Of a DNA stretch of 64,000 nucleotides, positions 29,442-52,953 are shown one piece after another (within the stretch, counting starts at the first letter, position 1; each line of letters opens with the position of its first letter). This DNA comes from Patescibacteria group bacterium (GTDB lineage: Bacteria; Patescibacteriota; Minisyncoccia; Phycocordibacterales; CAIZLB01), in NCBI GenBank assembly GCA_040384865.1, contig JAZKIM010000004.1:75974-139973 (forward strand), given 5' to 3'. Below the pieces are notes generated by a model. The model had not been told where the DNA came from. It did not search any database and saw only the letters and a list, made by a program, of their open reading frames with translations. The position numbers and the translations under genes are program-made.

Positions 29442-29987
29442 TTAAACTTTGAGTGCGGCCTGATCGAGTAGATTGATGAGCGCACTTCTCGCAAAGCCCC
29501 ATGTAGAGGCTAGTTCGTCGAAGTGGTACACGATTCTGTTTCCACGAGGATCAAAGTGTCCATCGGGGCAGCTTCGCAGGTCATCCATTGATTGCTCTGC
29601 GCGGAGTCCAAAGTAATCCCAACCTTTGAATGTTTGCAGCAGGGCAACCTTGAATTTACCGCTCAACATCTTGTACATGAGACAGACTGCTTGATAATTT
29701 TTTGCTCGTGGAGAGGGGCAGTCCGTTGTGATATCGAACGCAGCGACGGGAGTGAGATTGACCCACGCCTCATCGTCAAAGAGTTCAATGCGTGCCAATT
29801 TACCGACTCTAATCTTTCTCATTTGGAATAAATTGTTGTGCTGGATTTCCAGCGGGGTTTGTGTGCTTTGTTTGGCGGTATGATACCGAAAAAGGCTCTG
29901 TTTGACAACTCTTAAAAGTCCTTGTACTTTAAGGTCAGATTTCCGAATCGATAATTCAAAACCAAACCTCAACCGGAACCTTACCAA
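29442..29987 (-). CDS. Hypothetical protein (GC-rich, uncertain ORF; TTG start as drawn)
   Basis: 181 aa ORF in the GC-rich block, diverging from the radical-SAM gene; no motif recognised. Confidence 0.3.
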   Translation of the reverse strand: MVRFRLRFGFELSIRKSDLKVQGLLRVVKQSLFRYHTAKQSTQTPLEIQHNNLFQMRKIRVGKLARIELFDDEAWVNLTPVAAFDITTDCPSPRAKNYQAVCLMYKMLSGKFKVALLQTFKGWDYFGLRAEQSMDDLRSCPDGHFDPRGNRIVYHFDELASTWGFARSALINLLDQAALKV

Positions 29988-31831
29988 TGAAATATTCCCT
30001 CATCGCGCCACTTATGGTGGCGCTCCTCATTAAGCTGGAAGTCTTGGAAACACTTCCTGACTTTTCGTCCTGGTCTGACCCGACAAAGGTCCGCTGGAGC
30101 GAAGAACAGAACACCTACCTCGACCATTCTTTGGAAGGGGAACACTGGGCGCTTTGCGCAATCTTGTCCAGCGGCAAGCGGATGTCGGAACCGACAAAGG
30201 TTCCGATGAAAAAGTCACTTGCACTGACAATCCGCACCGACCTCTTTTATCGCAAGACCACTTATATTGCGGTAACCATGCTCGGTATGGTGCGTTCGAT
30301 CGAACGCAAACAGTCGCGGCGACTCGTACTCGTGAATGTTGAGCAGATGCTTAACGAACAGGCCGGTGATCTACAGCAATATCGCGTATGGCCACACCTC
30401 GGCCTCATCTTCGTCGGCACAGTTGCCGACGAAGAAGGGTACGAAGTCGTCATCTGGGACGAATACGCTAAAGGCAATGTGCCTTTGGAAAAACTCGTTC
30501 AGGAAGGCGACATCGTCGGCCTCAGTCTCGTTGTCACCGGAATGGATCGCGGTATGATGCTCGCACGCCGGGCCAAAGAACTTGGCGCAGCCTGTGTCAT
30601 CGCCGGGAATGACTCGGCGATCTTCCGTGCTAACCAGGTGATGGCTCAAAATGATCGACCGATCGACGCGGTCTTCACGACAAACAGTCTGACCGCGGTC
30701 AGGCAGTTTCTGCGAGAAATTGGCAGAACGCCGATCGAAGAGCTCGACATCCCAGGTGTTCAGATGACAGCGCGTGGCGAAGTGCGTTCAAACGAACGTG
30801 ATCAACTGCTCATCGAACAAGAAGCTCGAAAGAGCAGCGAGTTCAATAGTGACGACGTGTTCGTTGTGCCGAAGTTGGAGCTCTACCCGCACTGGGAAGA
30901 GCTATGGACTAACTACCGCGCGACCTTCGGTCACAAGCACTCGAACCCGAAGACGGTGAAGAATGCAATTTCTCTCTTTGCCCAAGGGTGTACTCGCACC
31001 CGCGGTAGTGATGTGTGTCTTTACTGCACCATCGCCGGCGTCGCAGATTTGCGTACGCCGTCGGAAGAAATTGTTCGACGCACCATTGAAGCGTACGATA
31101 AGTTCGGTATCGACATGCTCTACAACGCGACAGATAGCGTTTATGAAATGGCGAAAGTCGTGAGTCAGCTCCAGAGGCTCGGTGCTTCGTGGAAGTCGAT
31201 GACGATCTACGGCCGAGCACAAGGTATCGCTCGTGCCCCACACCTCATTGAAGAATGGCAAAAAGTTGCGACGGAGCGACTACTCGTTAACGTCGGAATG
31301 GATTCCGGCAGTGACGAGATTCTTCATAAGGGGATCGTTAAATCTTCGACTGATGTGCTGGGCAGCCGTCTTGCTGAAAACCGAAACGCGGTGAAGTACA
31401 TTCGACAGTCTGGTGCGCATCTGCACTACTCACTCATCTTCGGTTCACCTGGAGAGACACTCGAAACGTGCGAAAGTAGCATCGAGTTTCTCGAATGGAC
31501 GATCGAGGTTCTTGGTAGTCAGCTCGACATCTGCGAGACCGACGTCTTCTGGCTGAACTTCGGTTCGCCGGCAAGCCGGATATTCCGTGAGTATGCGTTC
31601 GCCGTGTACCTTGCGAGTCTCGCGGGGAAGACAATCGAGCGCGATGAGTGGCAGCGGGATTTTGCGCAGTATGCTAACGAACTTGTTGTGCCACAGTCAG
31701 TGGAGGAGTCGTGGTATCGCCACTTCACCAACATCGAGTACGAGACGGCGCAGTTGTTCAATCAGCGTGCGGCCGAGATCATGTCGCGACACACGGGGAG
31801 TATTAGGGGGCGAGCCTTTAGGCCTGCCTAA
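29987..31831 (+). CDS. Cobalamin-binding-domain radical-SAM-like enzyme (class B rSAM-like, non-canonical Cys spacing)
   Basis: 614 aa. The N-terminal half resembles a B12-binding Rossmann domain (GLIFVGTVADEEGYEVVIWDE ... VGLSLVVTG ... CVIAGNDSAI). The central AQGCTRTRGSDVCLYCT motif gives C-x8-C-x2-C spacing, followed by a NVGMDSGSDEIL (GxESGS-like) motif. Confidence 0.5.
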   Translation: MKYSLIAPLMVALLIKLEVLETLPDFSSWSDPTKVRWSEEQNTYLDHSLEGEHWALCAILSSGKRMSEPTKVPMKKSLALTIRTDLFYRKTTYIAVTMLGMVRSIERKQSRRLVLVNVEQMLNEQAGDLQQYRVWPHLGLIFVGTVADEEGYEVVIWDEYAKGNVPLEKLVQEGDIVGLSLVVTGMDRGMMLARRAKELGAACVIAGNDSAIFRANQVMAQNDRPIDAVFTTNSLTAVRQFLREIGRTPIEELDIPGVQMTARGEVRSNERDQLLIEQEARKSSEFNSDDVFVVPKLELYPHWEELWTNYRATFGHKHSNPKTVKNAISLFAQGCTRTRGSDVCLYCTIAGVADLRTPSEEIVRRTIEAYDKFGIDMLYNATDSVYEMAKVVSQLQRLGASWKSMTIYGRAQGIARAPHLIEEWQKVATERLLVNVGMDSGSDEILHKGIVKSSTDVLGSRLAENRNAVKYIRQSGAHLHYSLIFGSPGETLETCESSIEFLEWTIEVLGSQLDICETDVFWLNFGSPASRIFREYAFAVYLASLAGKTIERDEWQRDFAQYANELVVPQSVEESWYRHFTNIEYETAQLFNQRAAEIMSRHTGSIRGRAFRPA

Positions 31832-31925
31832 GAGGACAAGCTCCTTAGAAAACAGCGGGGCCTTCAACGAAAGTTGGAGGTCCTGTTTTTATATAAAAAC
31901 GCAGCCACCCCTTTCAGGATGGCCG

Positions 31926-32780
31926 CTATGTTTTTTGCCCCTCAGACTTCACAACCCAACGGCTGAGGTAGCCGGTCGCAATGAGTGCGACTATGACCCC
32001 ACCCCACTGAAGTGGTGATAGTTTCTCACCGAGCAGTATTCCCGCGACGATGATCACCGCAAGGGTTTCACCTTGAGCAAGGACGCTTGCCACTTCGACG
32101 GGCAAATTGTCGAAGGCGACGAGATTTGCCAGCCAGTAGAGGAAACCACCGACGAAGGCAAAGGCGATGATCGCCAACCGCAGTTCAGCGTTTTCGTTGA
32201 CTGCCGACCAGGAAGCGTCGAGACTTCCGATGACTCCGATTGTGCCAATGCCGACTGATCCCCAAAAGCATCGATGCATCGAGGATGACTTTGCCCGTAC
32301 GATCAGCTCGTACAGGATACCGTTCGTGGCGGTAGCGAGGAGACTCCAGAGCAATCCGGTCATATTGAAGTTTCCGTTCCAGCGGGCGGCGATGATACCG
32401 CTCAGCATAAGACAGAAACAAATGATCGGCGCAGTGGAAACCTTTTTGCCAAAGATCCAGGCAATGAAGAAGTTCACTGCCGGAGTCGTTGCGATGATGA
32501 TAATCGTTGGTCCCGCGCCCCACTCGCGAATGCCTTTGAATAGGCCGAGTGATGCGAAGGGGACGCAGAGCGCGATCAAGTACGTGTACTTGTCGGTGGT
32601 TGCGACCCGTCCGCGCAGGAGTAGGAACGCGAGAATGGCGGTGAGCCAGCCGCGCATTGCGAGCAACTGTTCGGGTGTTTGTGACTTCAGTACATTGACG
32701 AAAGGAAGGGCAAGCCCCGCTGTTAGCCAAATACCGATGACTCCGAGGAGCCCGAGAGAGACATGGTGTTTGGGGCGCAC
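31926..32780 (-). CDS. EamA/DMT-superfamily transporter
   Basis: 284 aa with ~10 TM helices in two repeated halves; GC-rich. Confidence 0.65.
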   Translation of the reverse strand: MRPKHHVSLGLLGVIGIWLTAGLALPFVNVLKSQTPEQLLAMRGWLTAILAFLLLRGRVATTDKYTYLIALCVPFASLGLFKGIREWGAGPTIIIIATTPAVNFFIAWIFGKKVSTAPIICFCLMLSGIIAARWNGNFNMTGLLWSLLATATNGILYELIVRAKSSSMHRCFWGSVGIGTIGVIGSLDASWSAVNENAELRLAIIAFAFVGGFLYWLANLVAFDNLPVEVASVLAQGETLAVIIVAGILLGEKLSPLQWGGVIVALIATGYLSRWVVKSEGQKT

Positions 32781-38792: not shown

Positions 38793-39209
38793 GTGGAGAT
38801 GCCGGGAATCGAACCCGGGTGCAAGTGAGTCTCTTAGATGAATCTACGCGGCGTAGAGGGTCTTTAGACCTGCCCGGAGGCAAGGTCATTTAAAGTTCGT
38901 TACTTTAAGACAATCAAAACATAACGAACCCGAGCTACTATGGTTTCGGTAGACGACCGTAGCAGATCGTTAACCTATTTTGGATATATACCACCGGCGC
39001 ACGTTCTCCAAAAATAAACGTGCGTGATGTCGCTAGGCAGGGAGCTTACGCTCGGGCTGTCGCGAAGGCAAAATCGTTCACCGCAAAATACGGTGAAGCG
39101 ACTTTAGCTTGTCGTGCGTTAGCACTTAAGGGTTCCGGCAGATTTACGAGTTACCGGAGCTCGGTCGCGCACATAAAAGAAATTTCACATGTCGAAGCCA
39201 ATCATCCCC
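38793..39209 (-). ncRNA. ssrA: tmRNA (SsrA), ~417 nt
   Basis: Minus-strand 5' end GGGGAUGAUUGGCUUCGACAUG matches the tmRNA 5' consensus (GGGG.UGA...UUCGAC). The 3' end has a T-arm CCGGG-UUCGAUU-CCCGG and an acceptor 3' strand CAUCUCC that pairs with the 5' GGGGAUG, including a G3·U70 wobble and an A73 discriminator (Ala identity). smpB lies immediately upstream. A candidate tag ORF reads ...GCG GUG AAC GAU UUU GCC UUC GCG ACA GCC CGA GCG UAA (AVNDFAFATARA*). Confidence 0.75.
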
Positions 39210-39217
39210 ATGTTGTG

Positions 39218-39664
39218 TTATTGATTTTTCAAAGTCCTCCTGATCTCGCGGTCAGAATCTCGCTTCTTGATCGTCTGACGCTTGTCGAAACGTTTCTTTC
39301 CGCGGGCAATACCTATTTCTATTTTAACCTTGCCCTTATTGTTGTACATGGAAATTGGCACTACTGTCAACCCCTTACCGGTTTCAATGTCTGCCAATTC
39401 CTTAATTTCTGATTTTTTGAGAAGTAATCGTCGGTTTCGTCCAGGTTCATAGCCCTTTGGTGTGTTATTCATCTGGAACGGAGGGATGGTGGCACCGGTG
39501 AGATATGCCTCGCCACCGCGGATTAATACATATGCACCTTCAAGTGAACCTTGGTGTGCTTTGACTGATTTGACCTCAAAACCAAAAAGCTCGATTCCAG
39601 CCTCATAGGCTTTTTTGATATCGTAGTTGAAGTGAGCTTTTTTGTTTTGTACGAATGTTGTCAT
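39218..39664 (-). CDS. smpB: SsrA-binding protein SmpB
   Basis: MTTFVQNKKAHFNYDIKKAYEAGIELFGFEVKS...GKGLTVVPISMYNNKGKVKIEIGIARGKKRFDKRQ, canonical SmpB; start set at the internal Met (ORF-track start 39748 is an upstream extension). Confidence 0.9.
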   Translation of the reverse strand: MTTFVQNKKAHFNYDIKKAYEAGIELFGFEVKSVKAHQGSLEGAYVLIRGGEAYLTGATIPPFQMNNTPKGYEPGRNRRLLLKKSEIKELADIETGKGLTVVPISMYNNKGKVKIEIGIARGKKRFDKRQTIKKRDSDREIRRTLKNQ

Positions 39665-39689
39665 GACGGGTGAAATGTAAAAGTATACA

Positions 39690-39741
39690 AAGTATAACAA
39701 ATGTAAAGCGCGCCGCTCGGAAGAATCCTTTGGCGGCGCGC
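39690..39741 (-). terminator. Rho-independent terminator (minus strand) between the 135-aa ORF and smpB
   Basis: GCGCGCCGC-loop-GCGGCGCGC 9-bp GC stem (39708-39741) followed on the minus strand by UUUACAUUUGUU. Confidence 0.6.
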
Positions 39742-39744
39742 GTT

Positions 39745-40152
39745 TCATTCACCGATGAACCGGAAGGATCTGGGTGAGAAGGCGAAGAGTCTTCGGGGAT
39801 CTCTCCGTAACCCTCCATTAAGCAGTAAGAATTCTGCTGCAATTAGCCTGTCTTCGAGGGCAAGGGTGACGATTACTTCTGCCATGAGCGCAAAGCGCGT
39901 ACCTTTTGGAAATTTGCTGACGTACGGTCGGTAGTGGCCATCACGTCGCATAAAGTCTTCAGGTTCAAAGTATGTTGCGAACCTTACTCCGAGGAAGTCT
40001 CCTGCCACGTGCCAGGGTAGGGGCGCTGAAAAACATTGTTTAGTTTGAGGAATCGCTATGATTTCAATCACCTTCCTTTCACCAAGGATATTGGTTCCTT
40101 CCATCCGAACCAAACCTTTTGTATTGAAAGCTTGGGGAACTATGTATGGCAT
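39745..40152 (-). CDS. Hypothetical protein
   Basis: 135 aa ORF; no recognisable motif; true start uncertain. Confidence 0.35.
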   Translation of the reverse strand: MPYIVPQAFNTKGLVRMEGTNILGERKVIEIIAIPQTKQCFSAPLPWHVAGDFLGVRFATYFEPEDFMRRDGHYRPYVSKFPKGTRFALMAEVIVTLALEDRLIAAEFLLLNGGLRRDPRRLFAFSPRSFRFIGE

Positions 40153-40324
40153 GAAAAAGTTCGGCGTATTAGGCCTTTGGGAAAATTGCTTGAGCCGGTT
40201 CGTCGTTATGAAGAACTGAAGCCTCTGAGTATATAACCATATTAGATAATATTCATCAATGAGTAGTTTAAGGATGTCTTAATGGTAGCCAAGTAATGTG
40301 CATATATTGTATACTCGAACACAT

Positions 40325-42295
40325 ATGAAAACGCCACCACCTGAACAAAAACAACTTAAGAACTTGAAGAAAATGCCGGAACAAGAAGGGAATGGTCGAC
40401 CAATGTCGCGAAAAGGTCCGAAAAATCCTAAGGAACCAAAAAATATATTTTTCAATAACGTGGTTGGAACCATTGTTATCTTTGCCGCGATCATACTTTT
40501 ATATACTTATTCAGTAGTCGGCAGCACAAAAGCGGCAACTATCAGTGTTTCCGAACTGGCTTCAGATATTATTGCGGCAAAGGTTACATCTGTTGTTGTG
40601 TCCGGAGAAGATCTTGCTATTACTTATATCGACAAAACAGAAAAAGTTTCAAAGAAAGAAGCGCAGAGTTCTCTTTCAGAAACTTTAACTAACCTTGGCG
40701 TTCCAAAGGAGCAGTTGGCAACAGTGAAGATTGAAAACAAAACAGACGAAGGATTTGGATATTGGCTTGGAAATCTTTTACCGTTCATTTTCCCAATTCT
40801 TTTGTTCGGTGGAATGCTCTGGTTCCTTACGAGGCAGGCGAGAGGCTCTGGTATGCAAGCATTTAGCTTCGGACAGTCACGGGCACGTTTGACCAAACCT
40901 GAAGATGAGAAGGTTCGTATTACTTTCAAGGACGTAGCAGGCGCTAAGGAGGCAAAACAGGAATTGTCCGAGATAGTGGATTTCCTTAAAAATCCAAAGA
41001 AGTTTTTAGATATAGGTGCTCGCATTCCAAAAGGGATTCTTCTCATGGGTCAACCAGGTACTGGTAAGACATTGCTTGCTCGTGCTGTTGCTGGTGAGGC
41101 GAATGTTTCATTCTTCTCAATCTCTGGTTCTGAATTCGTCGAAATGTTTGTTGGTGTGGGCGCGTCTCGTGTGAGAGATCTCTTTGCTGTAGCAAAGGCA
41201 GCTGCTCCGGCAATCATGTTTATTGATGAAATCGATGCTGTCGGACGAGTACGAGGCGGGGGAACAGGCGGTGGTAATGATGAACGTGAGCAAACACTCA
41301 ACCAAATTTTGGTTGAAATGGACGGCTTCGAACCAAATGAAAAAGTAATTGTCATGGCAGCGACAAATCGTCCTGATGTACTCGACCCGGCGCTTCTACG
41401 GCCTGGCCGATTTGATCGACGGGTCACCATCGATCTCCCTGATCGAAGTGATCGTCTAGCTATTCTTGAAGTTCACGCAAAGGGCAAGCCTTTTGCTGAA
41501 GACGTGTACCTTCCACTCATTGCTGAGCGAACTCCTGGTTTTTCAGGTGCTGACCTGTATTCATTGGCCAACGAAGCTGCAATTTTAGCTGCTCGAGAAA
41601 ATCGCACCAAGATTTCTCAGTTTGATTTGATTCGATCGATTGAAAAAGTAATGCTTGGTCCTGAGCGACAAAGCCATATCCTTTCAATTCGAGAAAAAGA
41701 AGTAACTGCGTATCATGAAGCTGGTCATGCCCTTATTGCTTCACTTCTTCCGTTTGCGGATCCTGTACATAAAGTGTCTATCATCTCACGAGGGCGTGCT
41801 GCTGGATATACACTCAAACTTCCTCTTGAAGAAAGAAAACTACAATCTAAAAATGAGTTTCTTGATGATATCGCGGTCTCACTCGGTGGTTATGTTGTTG
41901 AAAAAAATATATTTAACGATCTTACTACAGGTTCATCAAATGATCTTCAGGTTTCAAGCGCTTTGGCTCGTGATATGGTCACTAAGTATGGAATGTCAGA
42001 CAAGATTGGCCCTATTGCCCTTGAATCAAGTGGAGGAAGAACCCTGATGGGAAGTATGGGTGTTGGTGACAGGGAATATTCAGAGTCAGTTAGTGCTTTG
42101 ATAGATGCTGAGGTATCAAAAATCATGAATGAAGCGTATGAACGGGCACTTAAGATCATTACGGACCATCGAGGGGCGCTTGACGGTATCTCAAAGGCTT
42201 TGATAGATGCTGAGACGTTGGAGCGAGATGAATTTGAGAAGTTATTGGTAGCGAACGGGATTGTCCCTAAAAAGAAAAGAGAAAAGGAAATTTAA
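40325..42295 (+). CDS. ftsH: ATP-dependent zinc metalloprotease FtsH
   Basis: N-terminal TM segments, AAA module GPPGTGKT-equivalent ([17 protein letters not shown]), second region of homology, HEAGHAL zinc motif. Confidence 0.95.
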
Positions 42296-42303
42296 ATTAC
42301 TAA

Positions 42304-42331
42304 AATACCGCCTCTTGTGGCGGTATTTTAG
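42304..42331 (+). terminator. Rho-independent terminator after ftsH
   Basis: ACCGCC-tcttgt-GGCGGT followed by ATTTTA. Confidence 0.65.
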
Positions 42332-42479
42332 TCTGTGTTTTCTTGATCAAGATTCCATCATTAAGAACTCAACCCTAGTAGGTTTGACTTACAAAAATGG
42401 TTTTGGACATGGGATATGTCGGAAAGGAGTAAGAAGACAAGATCTTTTAGATTATGCACTACAAAGCCTCACCTTCTTG

Positions 42480-42600
42480 AGAAATGATTTATAGTGCCCT
42501 TGCGCGGTCTCGGAAAATGCAAGGTGAAACCCTAAAAGGATATTTAGAGGAAAATTTCTAAACTACTCTGACCCCTCTCGGCCTGACTTTATTTCAAAGT
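42480..42600. repeat. Repeated element, copy A (composite of modules seen in B and C)
   Basis: gtgcccttgcgcggtctcggaaaatgcaaggtgaaacc is ~80% identical to the B module; it also carries the 'ggatatttagaggaaaatttc' and 'cccctctcggcctgac' modules. Confidence 0.6.
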
Positions 42601-43590
42601 AAAGTATCCGGATTGCGTATAAATAGCAGGACCTTGCTTAATAGGAGAGCTATCGACTTCTATTTTGTATTTGCCGGCCGCTAGAGTTGTCGGGATTGAC
42701 CAGCTATAACTTCCTGTATTGCTTATATTAGTAGCAATCTTCTGAACTGATATGCCGCTCTCATTCAACAAATGAATATCTATTGGAAAATCAGTCTTAT
42801 TGACAGTATTCCATTGAATATTGATAGTCGTACCTCTTTTAAAATCGTCTGTGTTGTCTTCGGTATCAGGATAGATAAGGACAAGTTTAGGAGATGATAC
42901 GTCTGATGAGACTGTGGTCGAAGTGGTTACAATAGGAATTGATTTGAAAGTGGAAATAATTACTTTTATATCACTTAGGGCTTTAACATATTCGGCGTTA
43001 GAAGTTAATGAGTTCATACCAAAATAGATACTTGTATTCTGTGCTACATCAAAACTGAAGAAGTAGTCTGTCGTATTTGTCTTGGACGTAAAGCCTGTCG
43101 AGGTGTATTTCTTATCTCCCACTTGAACTTCTTCCTGTATTCTTATAGCTCCGATCCCCACGCCAGTAGATCCACAAGGATCATTGGCTCCGGAATTGAT
43201 GAGGATAAAACCAAGACCTTTTTTAATGGAGACACAAGATGAAGCATCAGTACCACTATCAACAGAAGTAACGACTGCATCTGATGGATACTGTATTGAG
43301 TAACCGTGTTTTGAATTGGTATAGGTTTTAAGAGTAGCTGAAACTGAAACAGAAGTATTTACCGTGTTTTGTTGAGTAACCGCAGATGGATTCTGAGTGG
43401 CGGTTTGTTGGGTTTCAACTGTTGCTTGTGTATTCGTATCTACTACTGGAACTGGCACTTCTACTTTTTTGTTTTCCTGATATACATATACTCCTCCACC
43501 AACTGCAAGTATTGCTATAATCGATAAGATCAAAGGAATAATAAAGCCGCTCTGTTTGTTTTTCATATGGCTTAATATTAGCTTAATCAA
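42589..43590 (-). CDS. Membrane-anchored secreted protein, paralog A (beta-rich, Thr/Ser-rich)
   Basis: 333 aa; N-terminal anchor MKNKQSGFIIPLILSIIAILAVGGGVYVYQENK nearly identical (also at DNA level, ~90% over ~100 bp) to that of 44859-45848. Confidence 0.6.
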   Translation of the reverse strand: MIKLILSHMKNKQSGFIIPLILSIIAILAVGGGVYVYQENKKVEVPVPVVDTNTQATVETQQTATQNPSAVTQQNTVNTSVSVSATLKTYTNSKHGYSIQYPSDAVVTSVDSGTDASSCVSIKKGLGFILINSGANDPCGSTGVGIGAIRIQEEVQVGDKKYTSTGFTSKTNTTDYFFSFDVAQNTSIYFGMNSLTSNAEYVKALSDIKVIISTFKSIPIVTTSTTVSSDVSSPKLVLIYPDTEDNTDDFKRGTTINIQWNTVNKTDFPIDIHLLNESGISVQKIATNISNTGSYSWSIPTTLAAGKYKIEVDSSPIKQGPAIYTQSGYFTLK

Positions 43591-43599
43591 AGGGACTTG

Positions 43600-43750
43600 G
43601 GTAGCAACTTACCAGCTTTAATCCACCTCGGTCTATCTCACTAAAGGGTGCCCTTGCTCGGTCTCGGATTATGTAAAGTGAGACCACACAAGGGTTGTTT
43701 GGAAGATCTTAGGATGTCGAATTGAGGCACCTCAGTCGGGATCAAATTTA
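43600..43750. repeat. Repeated upstream element, copy B (modules ctcggtctatctcactaaagggtgccc + ttgctcggtctcggattatgtaaagtgagacc)
   Basis: The 27-nt module at 43637-43663 recurs at 44741-44767 with 1 mismatch; the second module resembles 42494-42532. Further related copies lie at 42480-42600 and 45880-45915. Confidence 0.7.
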
Positions 43751-44695
43751 AACCGCGAAAGAATTGTGCTCTTTTTCAGGGTAATCGTAATAAGGAGCTG
43801 CATTTTTACTCATTTGTAAATTGGGCACATGACCTCTCTTCTTAAGAAAGACAAGTAGGTCTAGTTGCATTGCCAAATCTGGAGAGATACCACTTACATA
43901 TCCATGAACTATTTGTGGATTATTGAATGCCAGTCGCTTGTTAAATTTAAGCTTTCTCTGACCATCAAAGGTATTATGGATTCCTTCTATGCTATTACCA
44001 AACCTTACTTGAGATACTATACCCGGATAGACTTTAAATTCTATATCGATACAATTAGTTTTAGATCTGATTTCTGAAGGCAGTCCATCATCAGTTCTGC
44101 CATATGGTACATAAGGTAAATTTAAATGAGAAAATATTATATCTTTTAATTCTTCGGTAAGATTAGGTATATGATTTTCCTGAAAATCGTCGTTGTGCAA
44201 TACAACGGCTCTTGATCTAAAGTACTCCTCTAAATCTGTTGATAATTTTTCATTATCATCTGTAAGAATATTTAGAGCAACACCATCTTCTGTAAGAAGG
44301 TAATCTGGGCAAACTTTTTCAACAATTTCTTTTTGTCCCTCTTTAAGTCTTTCAACTAACCAAGGATTATCGAGTAATCTACCTCCAGTAAATCGAGTGG
44401 CCCTAATACTATCTGCAATGGTGGAACGTCTATCACCATCTCTTTGTTTGCGTATCTCATCTAACAAAGCTTTTCCATCGTACAAGACAGCAAACCTTTC
44501 AGCGTTTCCATCTAGACCAGGATAGACTTCTGGCAGCATGAATCCTTTAAATTCGACAACCTGCTTTTCGCGCTCAGCGTCTTTATATTCTTTTGAATTC
44601 TGAACTTCTGAAAATTTAGTCTTTCGTTCAACATGGTCAGGAATATTCTTCAATTCTTTCGCTTTTTCATCTCGCCATTGCTGCCAATTTTCCAT
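43748..44695 (-). CDS. Hypothetical cytoplasmic protein (315 aa)
   Basis: Uninterrupted ORF between the two paralogs on the same strand; no signal peptide, no motif recognised. Confidence 0.5.
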   Translation of the reverse strand: MENWQQWRDEKAKELKNIPDHVERKTKFSEVQNSKEYKDAEREKQVVEFKGFMLPEVYPGLDGNAERFAVLYDGKALLDEIRKQRDGDRRSTIADSIRATRFTGGRLLDNPWLVERLKEGQKEIVEKVCPDYLLTEDGVALNILTDDNEKLSTDLEEYFRSRAVVLHNDDFQENHIPNLTEELKDIIFSHLNLPYVPYGRTDDGLPSEIRSKTNCIDIEFKVYPGIVSQVRFGNSIEGIHNTFDGQRKLKFNKRLAFNNPQIVHGYVSGISPDLAMQLDLLVFLKKRGHVPNLQMSKNAAPYYDYPEKEHNSFAV

Positions 44696-44699
44696 GTCA

Positions 44700-44860
44700 G
44701 TATCTTAACTTAAAACCAACATTTTGTGTAATCTAAGCCTCTCGGTCTGTCTCACTAAAGGGTGCCCCCGCTAGGAATCGAACTTTTTATAATGAAGCGT
44801 TGTAAGGGTTATTTAGAGAATTTCAGTTTGGTAAATCTAGCCCGCTCGGTCTAATCAATT
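44700..44860. repeat. Repeated upstream element, copy C
   Basis: Contains ctcggtctgtctcactaaagggtgccc (44741-44767), a 'gggttatttagagaatttc' module also present at 42537-42557, and 'cccgctcggtctaatc' resembling 42572-42587. Confidence 0.7.
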
Positions 44861-45848
44861 ATCCCTGTTTCCATGATGAGGCAACCAATTCAATGGTTGT
44901 TTTATTGCTTATTCCTGAATCTATAACGACATACTTAGTTGAATTATAAACTTTATAGTACTCTATTGTATTTTGAGTGCCGCCATCAGTCATGCCAATA
45001 TTTTTTGTATACCATACCTCACCATTAAGTGTAACTTTCGTAGCGCTAGTCAAATCAATATATTTATTCTCAACAAGCGAAATATTGATTCGATCCGTAG
45101 TAGAAATAGTTTTATTAATTACCTGATCCGCCTTGCTTTTAGGGTAGGCTATCGTGAGTCCGATTACTGAATTAGCTTCCCATATATCCCAGTCAGAAGG
45201 ATAAGAGAATCCGTAGGATGATCCCGAGTAGGATTTTGTGCTAACTTGCTGATTGGTATTCGTATTTAGATCTAAAATAATTGGAACCTCTACTGTTTTA
45301 CTTGGCTCGATAGCCGCTGCATTTTCTGCAGTAAAGAGAATCTTCATTGGAGTACCAGATGGAATCCCTATGCCTCCATTGTTAAAATTAAGAACAAGCT
45401 CAAAAGAAGTTGTTTTGGCTGTCCAATCACTGACTCTTACAGGTACCGAAGTTCCAATAGGCTTCCATCCTTGATTTTCATAGTTGAAGAATAGTTGGGC
45501 TGTACCTGCCTGTCCTTCAAACATCTGCCAAGAACAGCCTGTTGCGCTATTATCAATCGTTCCTTTTACAGTTAGAGGGAAGGAGACTTTTGAATTAGCA
45601 GCAAGAGAGGTAACGACCAAGGCACACTTTTGTATTTGGCCGACGGTATTATTTTTCACAGGAGTTTCTTCTGTTTTTACCTGACTTTCGTTTGAAGTAG
45701 TTGTTACCGTATTATCAATCTCTATATTTTCAGCTACTTTATTTTCCTGATATACATATACCCCTCCACCAACCGCAAGTATTGCCACAATTGCCAAGAT
45801 CAAGGGAATAATAAATCCGCTTTGTTTATTTTTCATATCTTTAATCAT
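44859..45848 (-). CDS. Membrane-anchored secreted protein, paralog B
   Basis: 329 aa; shares the N-terminal anchor with 42589-43590, C-terminal part diverged. Confidence 0.6.
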   Translation of the reverse strand: MIKDMKNKQSGFIIPLILAIVAILAVGGGVYVYQENKVAENIEIDNTVTTTSNESQVKTEETPVKNNTVGQIQKCALVVTSLAANSKVSFPLTVKGTIDNSATGCSWQMFEGQAGTAQLFFNYENQGWKPIGTSVPVRVSDWTAKTTSFELVLNFNNGGIGIPSGTPMKILFTAENAAAIEPSKTVEVPIILDLNTNTNQQVSTKSYSGSSYGFSYPSDWDIWEANSVIGLTIAYPKSKADQVINKTISTTDRINISLVENKYIDLTSATKVTLNGEVWYTKNIGMTDGGTQNTIEYYKVYNSTKYVVIDSGISNKTTIELVASSWKQG

Positions 45849-45915
45849 AGCTTGGTTTTAGGTCTTTAGGTAACAACTTGCCAATTTCTACCCACCTCGG
45901 TAGGTCTCACAATCT

Positions 45916-45991
45916 GGTGCGCGTGCCTGGACTCGAACCAGGGACCGCCAAGGTATAAGCTTGATGCTCTAACCAGCTGAGCTACACGCGC
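45916..45991 (-). tRNA. tRNA with anticodon UAU (Ile, AUA-reading), CCA encoded
   Basis: Minus-strand sequence GCGCGTGTAGCTCAGCTGGTTAGAGCATCAAGCTTATACCTTGGCGGTCCCTGGTTCGAGTCCAGGCACGCGCACCA folds as a cloverleaf: acceptor GCGCGTG/CACGCGC, D-arm GCTC..GAGC, anticodon stem TCAAG/CTTGG with loop CTTATAC, T-arm CCTGG-TTCGAGT-CCAGG. Confidence 0.7.
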
Positions 45992-46050
45992 GTAGGGCCA
46001 ATAGTATAGTAAATATTTGAGTTTATCAATTCAAGGCGTATCATAGGAAA

Positions 46051-47067
46051 ATGAATGTTTTATACACTGTAAAATCAATCAAAAAAGAGCTTCTTAAGAT
46101 AAAACCCTCAAAAGTGGTTGTTGTTGTTTCGAATAATATACAAAATATCCAGTCAGGTATTGTAAAAGAGGTAGCGGTTCTTTCGAAAGCAATTAAAGTG
46201 ATTGCCGTCAACGACGGTGAGGATCTTAAAAGTTGGAAATCTATTGAGAAATTATTAACTAAGTTTTTAAAGCTTGGGTTGGATAGAAAAAGTCTGATTA
46301 TTGCTATCGGCGGGGGAAGTATAGGAGATGCTGTTGGTTTTGCCAGCTCGATATATCTTCGTGGTATACCGTATATAAACATACCAACCACTTTGCTAGC
46401 TCAAGTTGATAGTGCTCATGGTGGAAAGACTGGTATTAATTTTGGTTCATATAAAAATCAAATCGGTACGTTCCACGAATCAGTGGCAACGGTTATTGAT
46501 CCTCGTTTCATTCAGACATTATCTGAAGAAGAGATTGTTAGTGGCTTGGGAGAAATAATTAAAGCTGGTTATCTCGCTGATCCATCTATTTTGTTATCAT
46601 TACAAAAAGAAACTACTGCAACACTGGCACAGAGCAAAAAATTGTTAACCATAATTCGAAAGGCTATTGAAGTAAAACGTTATTGTGTATTGAAGGATTT
46701 TAAGGATAAGGGGGTTAGACAATTGCTAAATTTAGGACATACGGTTAGTCATTCCATAGAGTTAAAGTACAAATTGAGCCATGGGCGAGCAGTTATTATT
46801 GGCATGATGGAAGAGTTTGAAATGAGTGAGCGTGCTGGTTTGAGTAAAATCGGCCTAACCTCTTCTCTTAAGGTGCTTCTAGAAAAACTTGGTATTTCTA
46901 ACGAAAAGAAATATATTCCAGATTGGAACGCTGTCATGAAGGATAAGAAGGTAAGTGGTGAAAATCTTGAATGGCCGATCATTACGGAAATTGGAAAGGC
47001 TAATTTGGTGAAAGTTAGTTTAAATAATTTTAAGGATTTGTTTAAGGGCGGAAAGATTTATAATTAA
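46051..47067 (+). CDS. 3-dehydroquinate synthase family protein (AroB-like, short)
   Basis: GGGSIGDAVGFASSIYLRGIPYINIPTTLLAQVDSAHGGKTGINF: NAD-binding glycine motif and the metal/substrate region of the DHQS-like superfamily; 338 aa. Confidence 0.65.
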   Translation: MNVLYTVKSIKKELLKIKPSKVVVVVSNNIQNIQSGIVKEVAVLSKAIKVIAVNDGEDLKSWKSIEKLLTKFLKLGLDRKSLIIAIGGGSIGDAVGFASSIYLRGIPYINIPTTLLAQVDSAHGGKTGINFGSYKNQIGTFHESVATVIDPRFIQTLSEEEIVSGLGEIIKAGYLADPSILLSLQKETTATLAQSKKLLTIIRKAIEVKRYCVLKDFKDKGVRQLLNLGHTVSHSIELKYKLSHGRAVIIGMMEEFEMSERAGLSKIGLTSSLKVLLEKLGISNEKKYIPDWNAVMKDKKVSGENLEWPIITEIGKANLVKVSLNNFKDLFKGGKIYN

Positions 47068-47129: not shown

Positions 47130-49316
47130 TTACTCAAAATGATTTTCTTCTCGCGTTTTTAGGATGTGAGCCAGGAGGCTATTTTCAGGTTTCAATAGTG
47201 TTGGATCGTTAGCGATAAGTGTTTGTGCCTCTTTGCGCGCAGCTTCTACCATTTTCAGATTCTTTATAGCCTCCATGGCAACATCAGAAATGCCCCACTG
47301 TTTTCCGACATATAGTTCGCCAGCTCCTCGCATCTGGAGATCAAGTTCGGAGAGCTCAAATCCATTTTTTGCTGTAACTAAAGCTTTGAGTCTTTCGACT
47401 GTCTTGTCACTTTTGCTTTCTGTTGCTACGAAACAATATGGTTGATGAGTTCCTCTGATGACGCGGCCCCGTAGCTGATGGAGCTGCGAGAGACCGAATC
47501 GCTCACCCCCTTCAATGAGGATAACGTTTGCGTTTGGAACATTTACCCCCACCTCGACCACGGACGTTGCAACGAGAATATCAATTTCGTGCTTGGCGAA
47601 GCGTTCCATGGTTGCTTCTTTTTCTGCAGGCTTCATTTTGCTGTGCAAAATATCTATTCGAGAATCCTTAAATACATCTTTTTTAAGACGCTTGGCTTCT
47701 TCTTTTACAGATTTAGCCAGTATGCTTTGTTCTTTGTCGGGATCGGGTTCGTCTATACGGGGACATATGACGTAGCATTGGCGGCCAGCTGCAAGCTCAA
47801 GGCGCATGCGGTCATAAGCTTTTTCTCGCTGGCCAATCGTACCAGCTATTTCTGTAAGTACTTTCTTTCGGCCGGCCGGCATCTGGTCGAGGATGGAAAG
47901 ATCGAGGTCTCCATATAAAGTGAGAGCGAGAGTGCGGGGAATTGGTGTGGCTGTCATTGAAAGAAGATGGGGTGTGACATCGTGTTTGCGCGCAAGTTTT
48001 TGACGTTGTGCGGTTCCAAAGCGATGTTGTTCATCGATGATGACGTATGCGAGGTCTTTGAACTTAACTGATTTTTGAATGAGGGCGTGCGTGCCGATGA
48101 CAACAGCAATCTCACCATTCGCTACCCATTTTAGAAATTGAGAACGAGAAATGTCAGTCCATCCGTTTGGGTTTATCTTAGATGGAAACTTTCTGCAACC
48201 ATTTCCAGTAATGAGGCCGATGGAAATGGGCATGTGTCGAAAAAGTTTTATGAACGATTCGAAATGTTGTCGAGCAAGAATTTCGGTTGGAGCCATGTAG
48301 CCTACTTGAAGGGTGCCGGCAACCCGGCCTTTTGGCCGTGTCGTTACGGCAGCATATGAAGTGACCGCTGCAACAGCTGTCTTTCCAGAGCCTACATCAC
48401 CTTCAAGTAGGCGAGACATGGGTTGACCTTTGGCGAAGTCTGCCAAGATATCCTCAACTGATTTTTGTTGTGCTTCGGTCAAGGGAAAGCCGAGACGTTC
48501 AATGAAATTGCTAACACCGACGCTCGCTGCCGGTTTGTCGATGATGAATGATTTCTCTTTTGCCTGAAGCGCGCGCGTTTGCTGATTTTTCAATTGAATG
48601 AAAAATACTTCTTCGAATGCAAAACGCTTTCGCGCCACTTCAGCGTCAGAATCTTTTTGTGGTGCATGCATCCACACGAGCGCAGTAGCAAGATTGGGTA
48701 GTTTATATCGTTCGCGAATGGCGGAGGGGATTGGGTCTGTGTCAGTAGCCTCGTTGCTAACCATGTCTTGAAATTCTTTTGTTTTGAATATGCGCTGGAG
48801 AGCGTGGAAGAACCAGCGTGACGTGATGCCTTTTGTTTCTGAGTAAACAGGAACGCCTACCGTTGGCGCTCCTTCACCAAAAAGTGATTTTCCTATATTT
48901 ACAGGAAGAACACCTATGGATTCGATTTCGGGATTGAGAAATGCAAGAACACCATTTCTGTCGGTAACCTTACCCGACACTTTTACCAAGCTGTCTGGCT
49001 GAATCAGTTTTGCAATATATGGTTGATGAAGCCATATGACTTTGACGCGAGAAGTGTCGTCTTCAATGAAACCTTCGGCCATAGGCATTCGACCACGAAA
49101 AGATTTGCTTGTTTTAAGGGAAGTGACTTTTCCAAATATTGTCGCCTGTTCGCCGCTTGTAAGATCGCGGATAAATTTTCCTGAGGCTGATTCGCCGTAG
49201 CGTAAGGGAAAATGATACAGTAGCTCCCCGACAGTTTGAAGGCCGATCTTTTGCAGTGCAGATCCTTGCTGCGGAGTAAGACGAAAAAGGTCAGAGAGAG
49301 GTGTCGAGAATAACAT
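47130..49316 (-). CDS. recG: ATP-dependent DNA helicase RecG
   Basis: 728 aa; N-terminal wedge domain, helicase motifs GDVGSGKT, DEQHRFG, QLHQLRGRVIRG. Confidence 0.95.
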   Translation of the reverse strand: MLFSTPLSDLFRLTPQQGSALQKIGLQTVGELLYHFPLRYGESASGKFIRDLTSGEQATIFGKVTSLKTSKSFRGRMPMAEGFIEDDTSRVKVIWLHQPYIAKLIQPDSLVKVSGKVTDRNGVLAFLNPEIESIGVLPVNIGKSLFGEGAPTVGVPVYSETKGITSRWFFHALQRIFKTKEFQDMVSNEATDTDPIPSAIRERYKLPNLATALVWMHAPQKDSDAEVARKRFAFEEVFFIQLKNQQTRALQAKEKSFIIDKPAASVGVSNFIERLGFPLTEAQQKSVEDILADFAKGQPMSRLLEGDVGSGKTAVAAVTSYAAVTTRPKGRVAGTLQVGYMAPTEILARQHFESFIKLFRHMPISIGLITGNGCRKFPSKINPNGWTDISRSQFLKWVANGEIAVVIGTHALIQKSVKFKDLAYVIIDEQHRFGTAQRQKLARKHDVTPHLLSMTATPIPRTLALTLYGDLDLSILDQMPAGRKKVLTEIAGTIGQREKAYDRMRLELAAGRQCYVICPRIDEPDPDKEQSILAKSVKEEAKRLKKDVFKDSRIDILHSKMKPAEKEATMERFAKHEIDILVATSVVEVGVNVPNANVILIEGGERFGLSQLHQLRGRVIRGTHQPYCFVATESKSDKTVERLKALVTAKNGFELSELDLQMRGAGELYVGKQWGISDVAMEAIKNLKMVEAARKEAQTLIANDPTLLKPENSLLAHILKTREENHFE

Positions 49317-52843: not shown

Positions 52844-52864
52844 GTCGATACTGAGTTCTTAATG

Positions 52865-52953
52865 CGGAGAGTGAGGGATTTGAACCCTCGAGAGGTTTTA
52901 ACACCCCTACCTCGTTAGCAGTGAGGCGCTTTCGACCACTCAGCCAACTCTCC
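52865..52953 (-). tRNA. tRNA-Ser (anticodon GCU), long variable arm, CCA not encoded
   Basis: Minus-strand GGAGAGTTGGCTGAGTGGTCGAAAGCGCCTCACTGCTAACGAGGTAGGGGTGTTAAAACCTCTCGAGGGTTCAAATCCCTCACTCTCCG: acceptor GGAGAGT/ACTCTCC, anticodon loop CTGCTAA, long extra arm, T-arm GAGGG-TTCAAAT-CCCTC, discriminator G. Confidence 0.8.

Follow-up and report, generated by a model that had tools for sequence, protein, structure and literature searches.

Bacteria usually read the isoleucine codon AUA with a tRNA-Ile2 whose gene encodes a CAU anticodon, which the enzyme TilS converts to lysidine (LAU). TilS is present in about 98% of annotated genomes (PMC12514573) and is regarded as near-universal, essential, and an antibiotic target. 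Decoding of AUA without TilS has been described for about nine species in three clades (PMC3575796). In one of them, Mycoplasma mobile, a tRNA-Ile2 with an encoded UAU anticodon has an unmodified U34, and it is the ribosome that rejects AUG (Taniguchi et al. 2013, PMC3575796). Bifidobacterium and Neorickettsia combine a UAU tRNA with a type-2 isoleucyl-tRNA synthetase (IleRS2) and lack TilS (PMC3575796). Here we describe a tRNA-Ile(UAU) gene in a 64,000-nucleotide stretch of contig JAZKIM010000004.1, referred to below as the window, in which all positions are counted. The window comes from the cellular chromosome of a member of the Patescibacteria, class Paceibacteria, and not from a phage. 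We consider, with a probability of roughly 0.78, that this gene is the lineage's dedicated, chromosomally inherited minor tRNA-Ile for AUA and that it works without TilS.

The gene is of a known type, and its closest relatives in function can be compared with it point by point. Like the M. mobile gene, it encodes UAU for AUA, it has A37 as a site for N6-threonylcarbamoyladenosine (t6A), and it belongs to a reduced genome that probably has no tilS; in both cases misreading of AUG has to be avoided without lysidine. The two cases differ in their synthetase, since M. mobile uses an IleRS1 in which R replaces W in the zinc-binding domain whereas relatives of the window have IleRS2, and in their extent, since M. 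mobile is one species in the Tenericutes whereas the Paceibacteria trait is class-wide. Bifidobacterium and Neorickettsia are mechanistically the closest analogue, in a comparison known from genes alone. Unlike the Paceibacteria, they belong to unrelated phyla, their IleRS2 is thought to have been acquired horizontally, and they are set apart by the histidine-phosphatase insert that the Paceibacteria enzyme often carries. The canonical tRNA-Ile2(CAU) with TilS is of the same tRNA class and also reads AUA as isoleucine and rejects AUG, whereas the window gene encodes TAT in place of CAT and no tilS lies near ftsH. The eukaryotic cytosolic tRNA-Ile, with its pseudouridine-A-pseudouridine (psi-A-psi) anticodon, and the UAU tRNA-Ile of archaea without tiaS likewise have an encoded UAU and a type-2 IleRS. 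Eukaryotic tRNA-Ile(UAU) genes have an intron and depend on pseudouridylation (PMC11912914); the window gene has no intron. Finally, phage tRNA-Ile(UAU) genes share the loop CUUAUAC and are accessories on mobile genomes, whereas the gene described here is a syntenic core gene.

ARAGORN found three RNA genes in total in the 64-kb window, one of them a tRNA-Ile with anticodon tat at 45915-45991 on the minus strand, 77 nt long including the encoded CCA. The Rfam tRNA model (RF00005) matched 45918-45991 (minus strand) with 69 bits (E = 6e-13; gathering score, 29). In a manual reading of the sequence the cloverleaf has zero mismatches. On the minus strand, the acceptor stem GCGCGTG/CACGCGC is followed by U8-A9, the D stem GCTC/GAGC, the anticodon stem TCAAG/CTTGG, the variable loop CGGTC, the T stem CCTGG/CCAGG, and the discriminator A73, after which comes the encoded CCA. 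The anticodon loop, C32-U33-U34-A35-U36-A37-C38, runs from 45959 down to 45953, and the anticodon U34-A35-U36 occupies 45957-45955, with U34 at 45957. The first-pass annotation had reported a UAU anticodon in a well-formed tRNA here and had proposed a tRNA finder as a check; ARAGORN, Rfam, and the covarying stems described below all agree with it. Its loop and other coordinates were exact, except that its start at 45916 clipped the terminal A of the CCA, and it gave no strand.

Antisense to the tRNA, at 45917-45991 on the plus strand, Rfam reported the Plastid-ycf2 5'UTR RNA (RF04354) with 37.6 bits, below the gathering score of 65.7. The aligned consensus of that family resembles the reverse complement of a CAU-anticodon tRNA, which we take to be plastid trnI-CAU. 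The antisense match is an artefact, yet it reflects a tRNA body that resembles Ile2-type tRNAs. At permissive thresholds across 42300-46100, Rfam gave no RNA family besides the tRNA and this artefact.

To follow the gene in relatives, we scanned for RecG proteins in one genome per GTDB species and obtained the 80 best loci, with 56 to 83% identity; the source genome is not among them. Their named lineages are Paceibacterota, Parcubacteria, Taylor-, Zambryski-, Nomura-, and Kaiserbacteria, represented by metagenome-assembled genomes, and some loci are tagged generically or are probably mislabelled "Saccharibacteria." ARAGORN identified tRNA-Ile(tat) in 65 of the 80. The tRNA always lies downstream of recG, at a median distance of 668 nt, and the order recG-tRNA-ftsH holds in every locus that contains ftsH as well (53/53). 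Ten of the 15 loci without the tRNA end less than 800 nt past recG. The extended order recG-tRNA-Ile-ftsH-tmRNA (transfer-messenger RNA) recurs in many relatives.

We then aligned 66 tRNA-Ile(UAU) genes, comprising 62 distinct sequences. T34, A35, T36, A37, and A73 are invariant, none of the 66 has C34, and the loop reads CTTATAC in 63 and CTTATAT in the remaining 3. C32 is invariant and C38 nearly so in the UAU orthologues; the GAU tRNA of the lineage has A38. Pairing is found in 99.8% of stem cells, and 16 of the 21 stem pairs have changes on both sides that are compensatory. The covariation score was 0.714, compared with 0.168 for shuffles and at most 0.14 for slid registers. Since the flanking stems covary in 62 distinct orthologues, the register of the loop is fixed. 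A73 and U12-A23 are kept and C4-G69 is mostly kept in the UAU tRNAs; all three are isoleucine identity elements in E. coli. Furthermore, the acceptor stem and D arm of the window tRNA are the same as in the tRNA-Ile(GAU) of a relative (L077). A metagenome scan for a CAT version of the tRNA body produced 67 matches, none of them beside recG or from the Paceibacteria lineage. A single Synergistetes contig among the 67 had ftsH, and the others looked archaeal by eye. By these sequence measures the gene is a genuine and evidently functional tRNA under strong selection for the wobble U, and neither a misfolded call nor a pseudogene nor a CAT gene mutated in an isolated case.

The first-pass annotation had implied that an encoded UAU is a rarity of a minority of lineages. 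This does not hold: the gene is syntenic and unvarying throughout a large class of bacteria, and UAU tRNA-Ile is common on viral contigs too. In IMG/VR (L086-L205), a tRNA pattern with a free wobble base gave 124 matches, of which 85 have GAT, 36 TAT, and 3 CAT. Two of the contigs, L093 and L169, appear to hold Paceibacteria-type copies and could be DNA of the candidate phyla radiation (CPR) filed as viral. Taniguchi et al. cited 371 distinct metagenomic UAU tRNA-Ile sequences (PMC3575796).

The codon that this tRNA would read is frequent. In 45 long open reading frames (ORFs) of the window, AUA accounts for 18.5 per 1000 codons and 24% of isoleucine codons, and a frequency of 18.5 per 1000 falls into the "high use" class of PMC12514573. 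We aligned the RecG and FtsH proteins of the window to 80 and 53 orthologues, respectively, and mapped the codons back. At positions where the window has ATA, 59.5% of the orthologue cells hold isoleucine codons (ATT/ATC/ATA), 21% valine codons, and 1.8% ATG. The ATT and ATC columns have the same substitution profile, and ATG columns hold 59% ATG. Because the profile of ATA columns equals that of ATT and ATC columns, AUA means isoleucine in the window genome. The first-pass annotation had assigned the tRNA to AUA decoding and pointed to codon usage as a check; with AUA frequent and evolving as an isoleucine codon, that assignment is borne out.

We next consider TilS. No SGGxDS PP-loop occurs in any frame of the window. 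A phmmer search with E. coli TilS (E <= 10) against the ORFs of the window and the 80 related loci (1.3 Mb) returned nothing, and none of the 53 ftsH neighbourhoods of relatives contains a TilS-like ORF. A tRNA-Ile2(CAU) gene was likewise found neither in the window nor in the related loci. Five ORFs with a PP-loop motif are present in the related loci; the two that were scanned are GuaA and a QueC-like protein, and one of the remaining three is probably SHMT. In many bacteria, tilS and hpt lie directly upstream of ftsH. Upstream of ftsH in the window there are a small divergent ORF, smpB, and tmRNA, with no tilS or hpt. The same method did find two tRNA(CAU) genes, tilS, an hpt-sized ORF (186 aa), and ftsH on a Synergistetes contig; this arrangement spans 363-4404 of L250 and is also seen in L218. 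The TilS of L250 was considered as a CPR protein and rejected for its Synergistetes origin, and a search with it was uninformative on Paceibacteria.

For the CPR as a whole, we used the table of Meheust et al. 2019 (PMC6744442, Suppl. Data 1), which covers 2321 CPR and 1198 non-CPR genomes. TilS (K04075/PF01171) has 123 entries in CPR versus 866 in non-CPR genomes and is labelled depleted. Ribosomal protein S10 is equally distributed, with 2138 versus 1054. Also depleted are MnmG (K03495; 5 versus 897) and TadA (K11991; 158 versus 873), and also equally distributed are MnmA (K00566; 1495 versus 948) and TsaD (K01409; 1942 versus 995). By this table, the CPR as a group is largely without TilS and without the pathways for xm5U34 and inosine-34, and has kept the enzymes for t6A37 and 2-thiolation (PMC6744442). 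The main text of that paper is silent on TilS depletion. We found no paper in the searchable literature (main texts) that treats lysidine or tilS together with CPR, and the supplement of a Parcubacteria genome-streamlining paper gave no matches on tilS, lysidine, or tRNA-Ile. The link to a tilS-lacking lineage that the first-pass annotation had drawn is thus supported, with no tilS in the window or the 80 related loci and with TilS depleted in CPR, and we infer that the source genome lacks TilS.

The synthetase was studied in relatives, at L066 1-2367 (minus strand), L085 10001-13541 (plus strand), and L084 10001-13364 (plus strand), with proteins P0002-P0118. The best PDB matches of the L066 IleRS are the type-2/cytoplasmic enzymes 8c8u, 7d5c, and 1ile (E about 1e-157), compared with 7e-68 for the type-1 IleRS of S. 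aureus, and its homologues in databases are labelled Paceibacterota or Patescibacteria. On a 311-kb contig of a relative, the C-terminal part of IleRS has Anticodon_1 and DUF5915, and zf-FPG_IleRS is not among the listed families. Judged by these matches, relatives of the window carry a type-2 (archaeal/eukaryote-like) IleRS. An enzyme of the eukaryote type charges the psi-A-psi tRNA-Ile in eukaryotes, and it is also found in the TilS-less Bifidobacterium and Neorickettsia (PMC3575796). By analogy, the Paceibacteria appear to fit the IleRS2 route of these two genera and not the IleRS1 Trp-to-Arg route of M. mobile. IleRS2 permits reading of AUA without TilS and is no proof of it.

Many Paceibacteria have a type-2 IleRS that is interrupted by a histidine-phosphatase domain (PF00300); the insert follows roughly residue 540 and separates the editing region from the second catalytic half. 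We know of no description of a PF00300 insertion in an IleRS. Some gene calls give two ORFs, and a split IleRS was considered and rejected: a domain insertion is favoured because the reading frame of L066 stays open through the insert and the two ORFs of L085 result from a frameshift within the conserved VVGH motif.

We propose the following mechanism. The encoded UAU anticodon would pair with AUA, which is common in the genome, and the UAU tRNA would replace the usual route through a CAU tRNA and lysidine. Charging would most likely be performed by the type-2 IleRS of the lineage, and A37 would presumably carry t6A. At U34, no modification or a light one is probable. Misreading of AUG would be avoided through the tRNA body, at C32 and C38, together with the ribosome, as in M. 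mobile. From their conservation, C32 and C38 may be considered candidates for tuning codon affinity. Concerning U34, the likeliest state is bare, or merely thiolated or isomerised, because MnmG is missing from CPR. The first-pass annotation had held that an encoded UAU needs a special U34 modification; this requirement is not established, given the unmodified U34 of M. mobile (PMC3575796) and the MnmG counts of 5 versus 897.

Several points weigh against our reading. The tilS search covered the window and the related loci, and tilS or a tRNA-Ile(CAU) may lie elsewhere in the source genome. Many bacteria with IleRS2 keep TilS. The window contains no IleRS gene, and the IleRS data come from the relatives L066, L084, and L085 only. 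About 5% of the CPR entries in the table have TilS, and its families are similarity clusters, in which a very divergent CPR TilS family could be missed (PMC6744442). Expression, aminoacylation, and U34 chemistry of the tRNA-Ile(UAU) are interpreted here from the sequence level.

Among other explanations, the one that stays closest to ours keeps the same decoder and has a restrictive modification of U34, such as 2-thiolation by MnmA, pseudouridine, or a CPR-specific group, block the misreading of AUG in place of the tRNA body or the ribosome; this is the version of the first-pass annotation. MnmA normally acts only on the tRNAs for Glu, Gln, and Lys, which counts against it here, and no modification enzyme adjoins the tRNA gene. 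On the other hand, MnmA is widespread in CPR (PMC6744442), eukaryotic tRNA-Ile(UAU) uses psi-A-psi, and the authors of the M. mobile study left open a modified U in M. suis (PMC3575796). Since the one experimentally examined bacterial case considered here, M. mobile, is unmodified and MnmG is essentially absent from CPR, we regard a restrictive modification as possible and somewhat doubtful. The UAU tRNA could also be an auxiliary decoder in a genome that has tilS and tRNA-Ile2(CAU) too, as proposed for Lactobacillus casei, Cyanothece, and Ferrimonas. Both systems do coexist in some bacteria (PMC3575796), a minority of CPR genomes has TilS (the 123 entries of PMC6744442), and our search covered part of the source genome. 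However, auxiliary UAU genes are reported in few scattered strains or species only (PMC3575796), whereas here U34 is invariant and the gene syntenic across the whole class. The 53 ftsH neighbourhoods hold no tilS, and, measured against universal families, CPR show a roughly 15-fold depletion of TilS. Redundancy of this kind is unlikely.

Two further explanations question the origin or the identity of the tRNA. It could be a phage or mobile-element tRNA beside an inserted island and not a core gene. TAT is present in 36 of the 124 pattern matches on IMG/VR viral contigs, a three-gene array downstream of the tRNA (described below) is absent from the closest relative, L002, and the repeated tRNA 3' halves that some relatives have past the gene suggest an integration target. 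Yet the inserted part is an island 3' of the tRNA and not the tRNA itself. The position between recG and ftsH holds in 53/53 loci, the covariation is typical of the lineage, the promoter region is common to L002, and the neighbours recG, ftsH, smpB, and tmRNA are housekeeping genes. The sporadic distribution and mobile context of an accessory tRNA are not what we found at this syntenic core position, and a mobile origin is very improbable. As for identity, AUA could be reassigned, for example to methionine, or the tRNA could have a non-isoleucine identity. AUA does mean methionine in mitochondria. Other codon reassignments are known in CPR lineages (PMC8629427). Against this, ATA columns are indistinguishable from ATT and ATC columns and hold little methionine, unlike the ATG columns, and the isoleucine identity elements A73, U12-A23, and mostly C4-G69 are kept on a tRNA whose acceptor and D arms match those of the L077 tRNA-Ile(GAU). 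We see hardly any room for reassignment.

The flanks of the gene were examined as well. A consensus scan predicted a sigma-70-like promoter, TTGATA-17 nt-TACTAT, at 46001-46029 (minus strand), ending 10 nt before tRNA position 1, and a near-identical promoter sequence lies upstream of the tRNA in L002. The tRNA-Ile(UAU) therefore appears to have its own sigma-70-like promoter, as predicted from this sequence. On the 3' side, the trailer contains the motif ACCTACCGAGGTGGGTAG at 45888-45905 (minus strand), a unique exact match with which the 5' leader of the next gene also begins; that gene starts 66 nt past the tRNA in the window. The motif folds into a small hairpin with no U-run (-9.7 kcal/mol; z = -2.4); many relatives have a classic terminator hairpin and T-run directly after the tRNA. 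Its core, GACCGAGNNGG, has 12 matches in the window with no more than 1 mismatch. Six of these, all intergenic, form a minus-strand cluster at 42573-45902. The other exact matches to the core fall within coding sequence, as judged by reading-frame context, and are due to chance.

Five motif copies, approximately (G/T)AGAN..RCCGAGNNGG..TAGA, accompany an array of three genes for secreted or pilin-like proteins at 42589-45848 (42480-45910 with the repeats); all copies are on the minus strand and intergenic, and the one in the tRNA trailer is the first of the five. Gene 1 (44859-45848, minus strand) encodes 329 aa with a pilin-like hydrophobic N-terminus, MKNKQSGFIIPLILAIVAILAVGGG, and has no Pfam match. 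Gene 2 (43748-44695, minus strand; 315 aa) has no Pfam match either and is flanked by motif cores at 44841-44851 and 44737-44747. Gene 3 (42589-43590, minus strand; 333 aa) has a Kre9_KNH Ig-like domain, with motif cores at 43623-43633, upstream, and at 42573-42583, just after the stop codon. Genes 1 and 3 are N-terminal paralogues, and their leader and first ~110 nt, which encode the pilin-like signal peptide, are 85% identical. A 46-nt repeat follows genes 2 and 3, at 43648-43693 and 42494-42539, respectively. A conserved hairpin for the motif was considered and rejected, with only 2 of 5 copies folding better than shuffles.

In L002, ftsH comes directly after the tRNA, and both the array and the dehydroquinate synthase gene of the recG-tRNA interval are missing. 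Because L002 is without the array, we conclude that the array is an insertion on the 3' side of the tRNA. Most plausibly, the shared motif is the duplicated leader/trailer of surface-protein gene cassettes and not part of the tRNA. The first-pass annotation was right that the trailer carries a motif of the neighbouring array, as the core matches confirm, and the motif belongs locally to that inserted array and not to the tRNA. Within the array, GTTCGATTCCTAGCGGGGGCACC (44761-44783, minus strand) resembles the T-loop-to-acceptor 3' end of a foreign tRNA, and L027, L035, and L037 have partial duplicates of the tRNA-Ile 3' half downstream of the gene. The pattern suggests that the 3' flank of the tRNA may be an integration hot spot.

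The synteny anchors of the tRNA are recG upstream (47130-49316, minus strand; Pfam RecG_wedge, DEAD, Helicase_C, and RecG_dom3_C) and ftsH downstream (40298-42295, plus strand; Peptidase_M41 and AAA). The tmRNA gene (38793-39209, minus strand) is unusually long at 417 nt and has the tag ANARQAKVASPYFAVNDFAFATARA; smpB (39218-39748, minus strand) directly adjoins it. A tRNA-Ser(GCU) gene lies at 52864-52953 (minus strand). The window, with a GC content of about 42%, also encodes 3-dehydroquinate synthase, pilM, a type II/IV secretion ATPase, and a VirD4-like coupling protein, and many of its ORFs have no Pfam match. ORFs at the window start resemble a ribosomal-protein/secY cluster, as judged by eye only. 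Adjoining them at 7706-10513 (plus strand) is a 935-aa VirD4/TraG-like type IV secretion coupling protein, which may be part of a Patescibacteria type IV secretion system recently described in a preprint. A 614-aa ORF at 29987-31831 (plus strand) has a weak radical-SAM match only. It coincides with a 2-kb stretch (within 30001-32000) of 54% GC, which may have been acquired horizontally.

A second unusual tRNA was seen in the relatives. Eighteen of the 80 Paceibacteria loci have a tRNA-Ser whose anticodon is ACT (A34; loop UUACUAA), in most cases adjacent to tRNA-Ser(GCU); examples are L003 2804-2891, L004 862-951, and L081 8643-8730, and there are 15 other loci. In the window, the GCU gene is the only tRNA-Ser. 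Apart from Arg-ACG, bacteria very rarely have anticodons that start with A (PMC4013482). The A34 of this tRNA-Ser(ACT) would stay unmodified, because TadA is depleted in CPR (PMC6744442).

The tRNA-Ile(UAU) is thus a known type of decoder, and what is new is its scale: it is fixed across a very large and little-studied class and probably across much of the CPR. The searchable literature seems to contain no discussion of a class-wide UAU trait alongside the loss of both MnmG and TadA. A broader proposal, to which we give about even odds, is that the lysidine system has been abandoned across the Paceibacteria, and probably in most of the CPR, in favour of a UAU tRNA-Ile without xm5U-type wobble modification. 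If this is true, a radiation that accounts for a large part of bacterial diversity would as a rule decode AUA with a "bare U34," a mode so far demonstrated in Mycoplasma mobile alone. The tRNA would work with an unusual IleRS2, often with a histidine-phosphatase insert, and with reduced ribosomes that must reject AUG. If a whole CPR class with frequent AUA codons depends on an encoded UAU anticodon and is also without MnmG and TadA, the minimal set of wobble modifications compatible with the standard code would be far more widespread than thought. For this class of CPR bacteria, TilS would serve poorly as a universal marker or drug target, and annotation and completeness estimates that expect TilS and tRNA-Ile2(CAU) would misjudge CPR genomes. 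How a U34 tRNA avoids AUG would become testable in a second, very large lineage.

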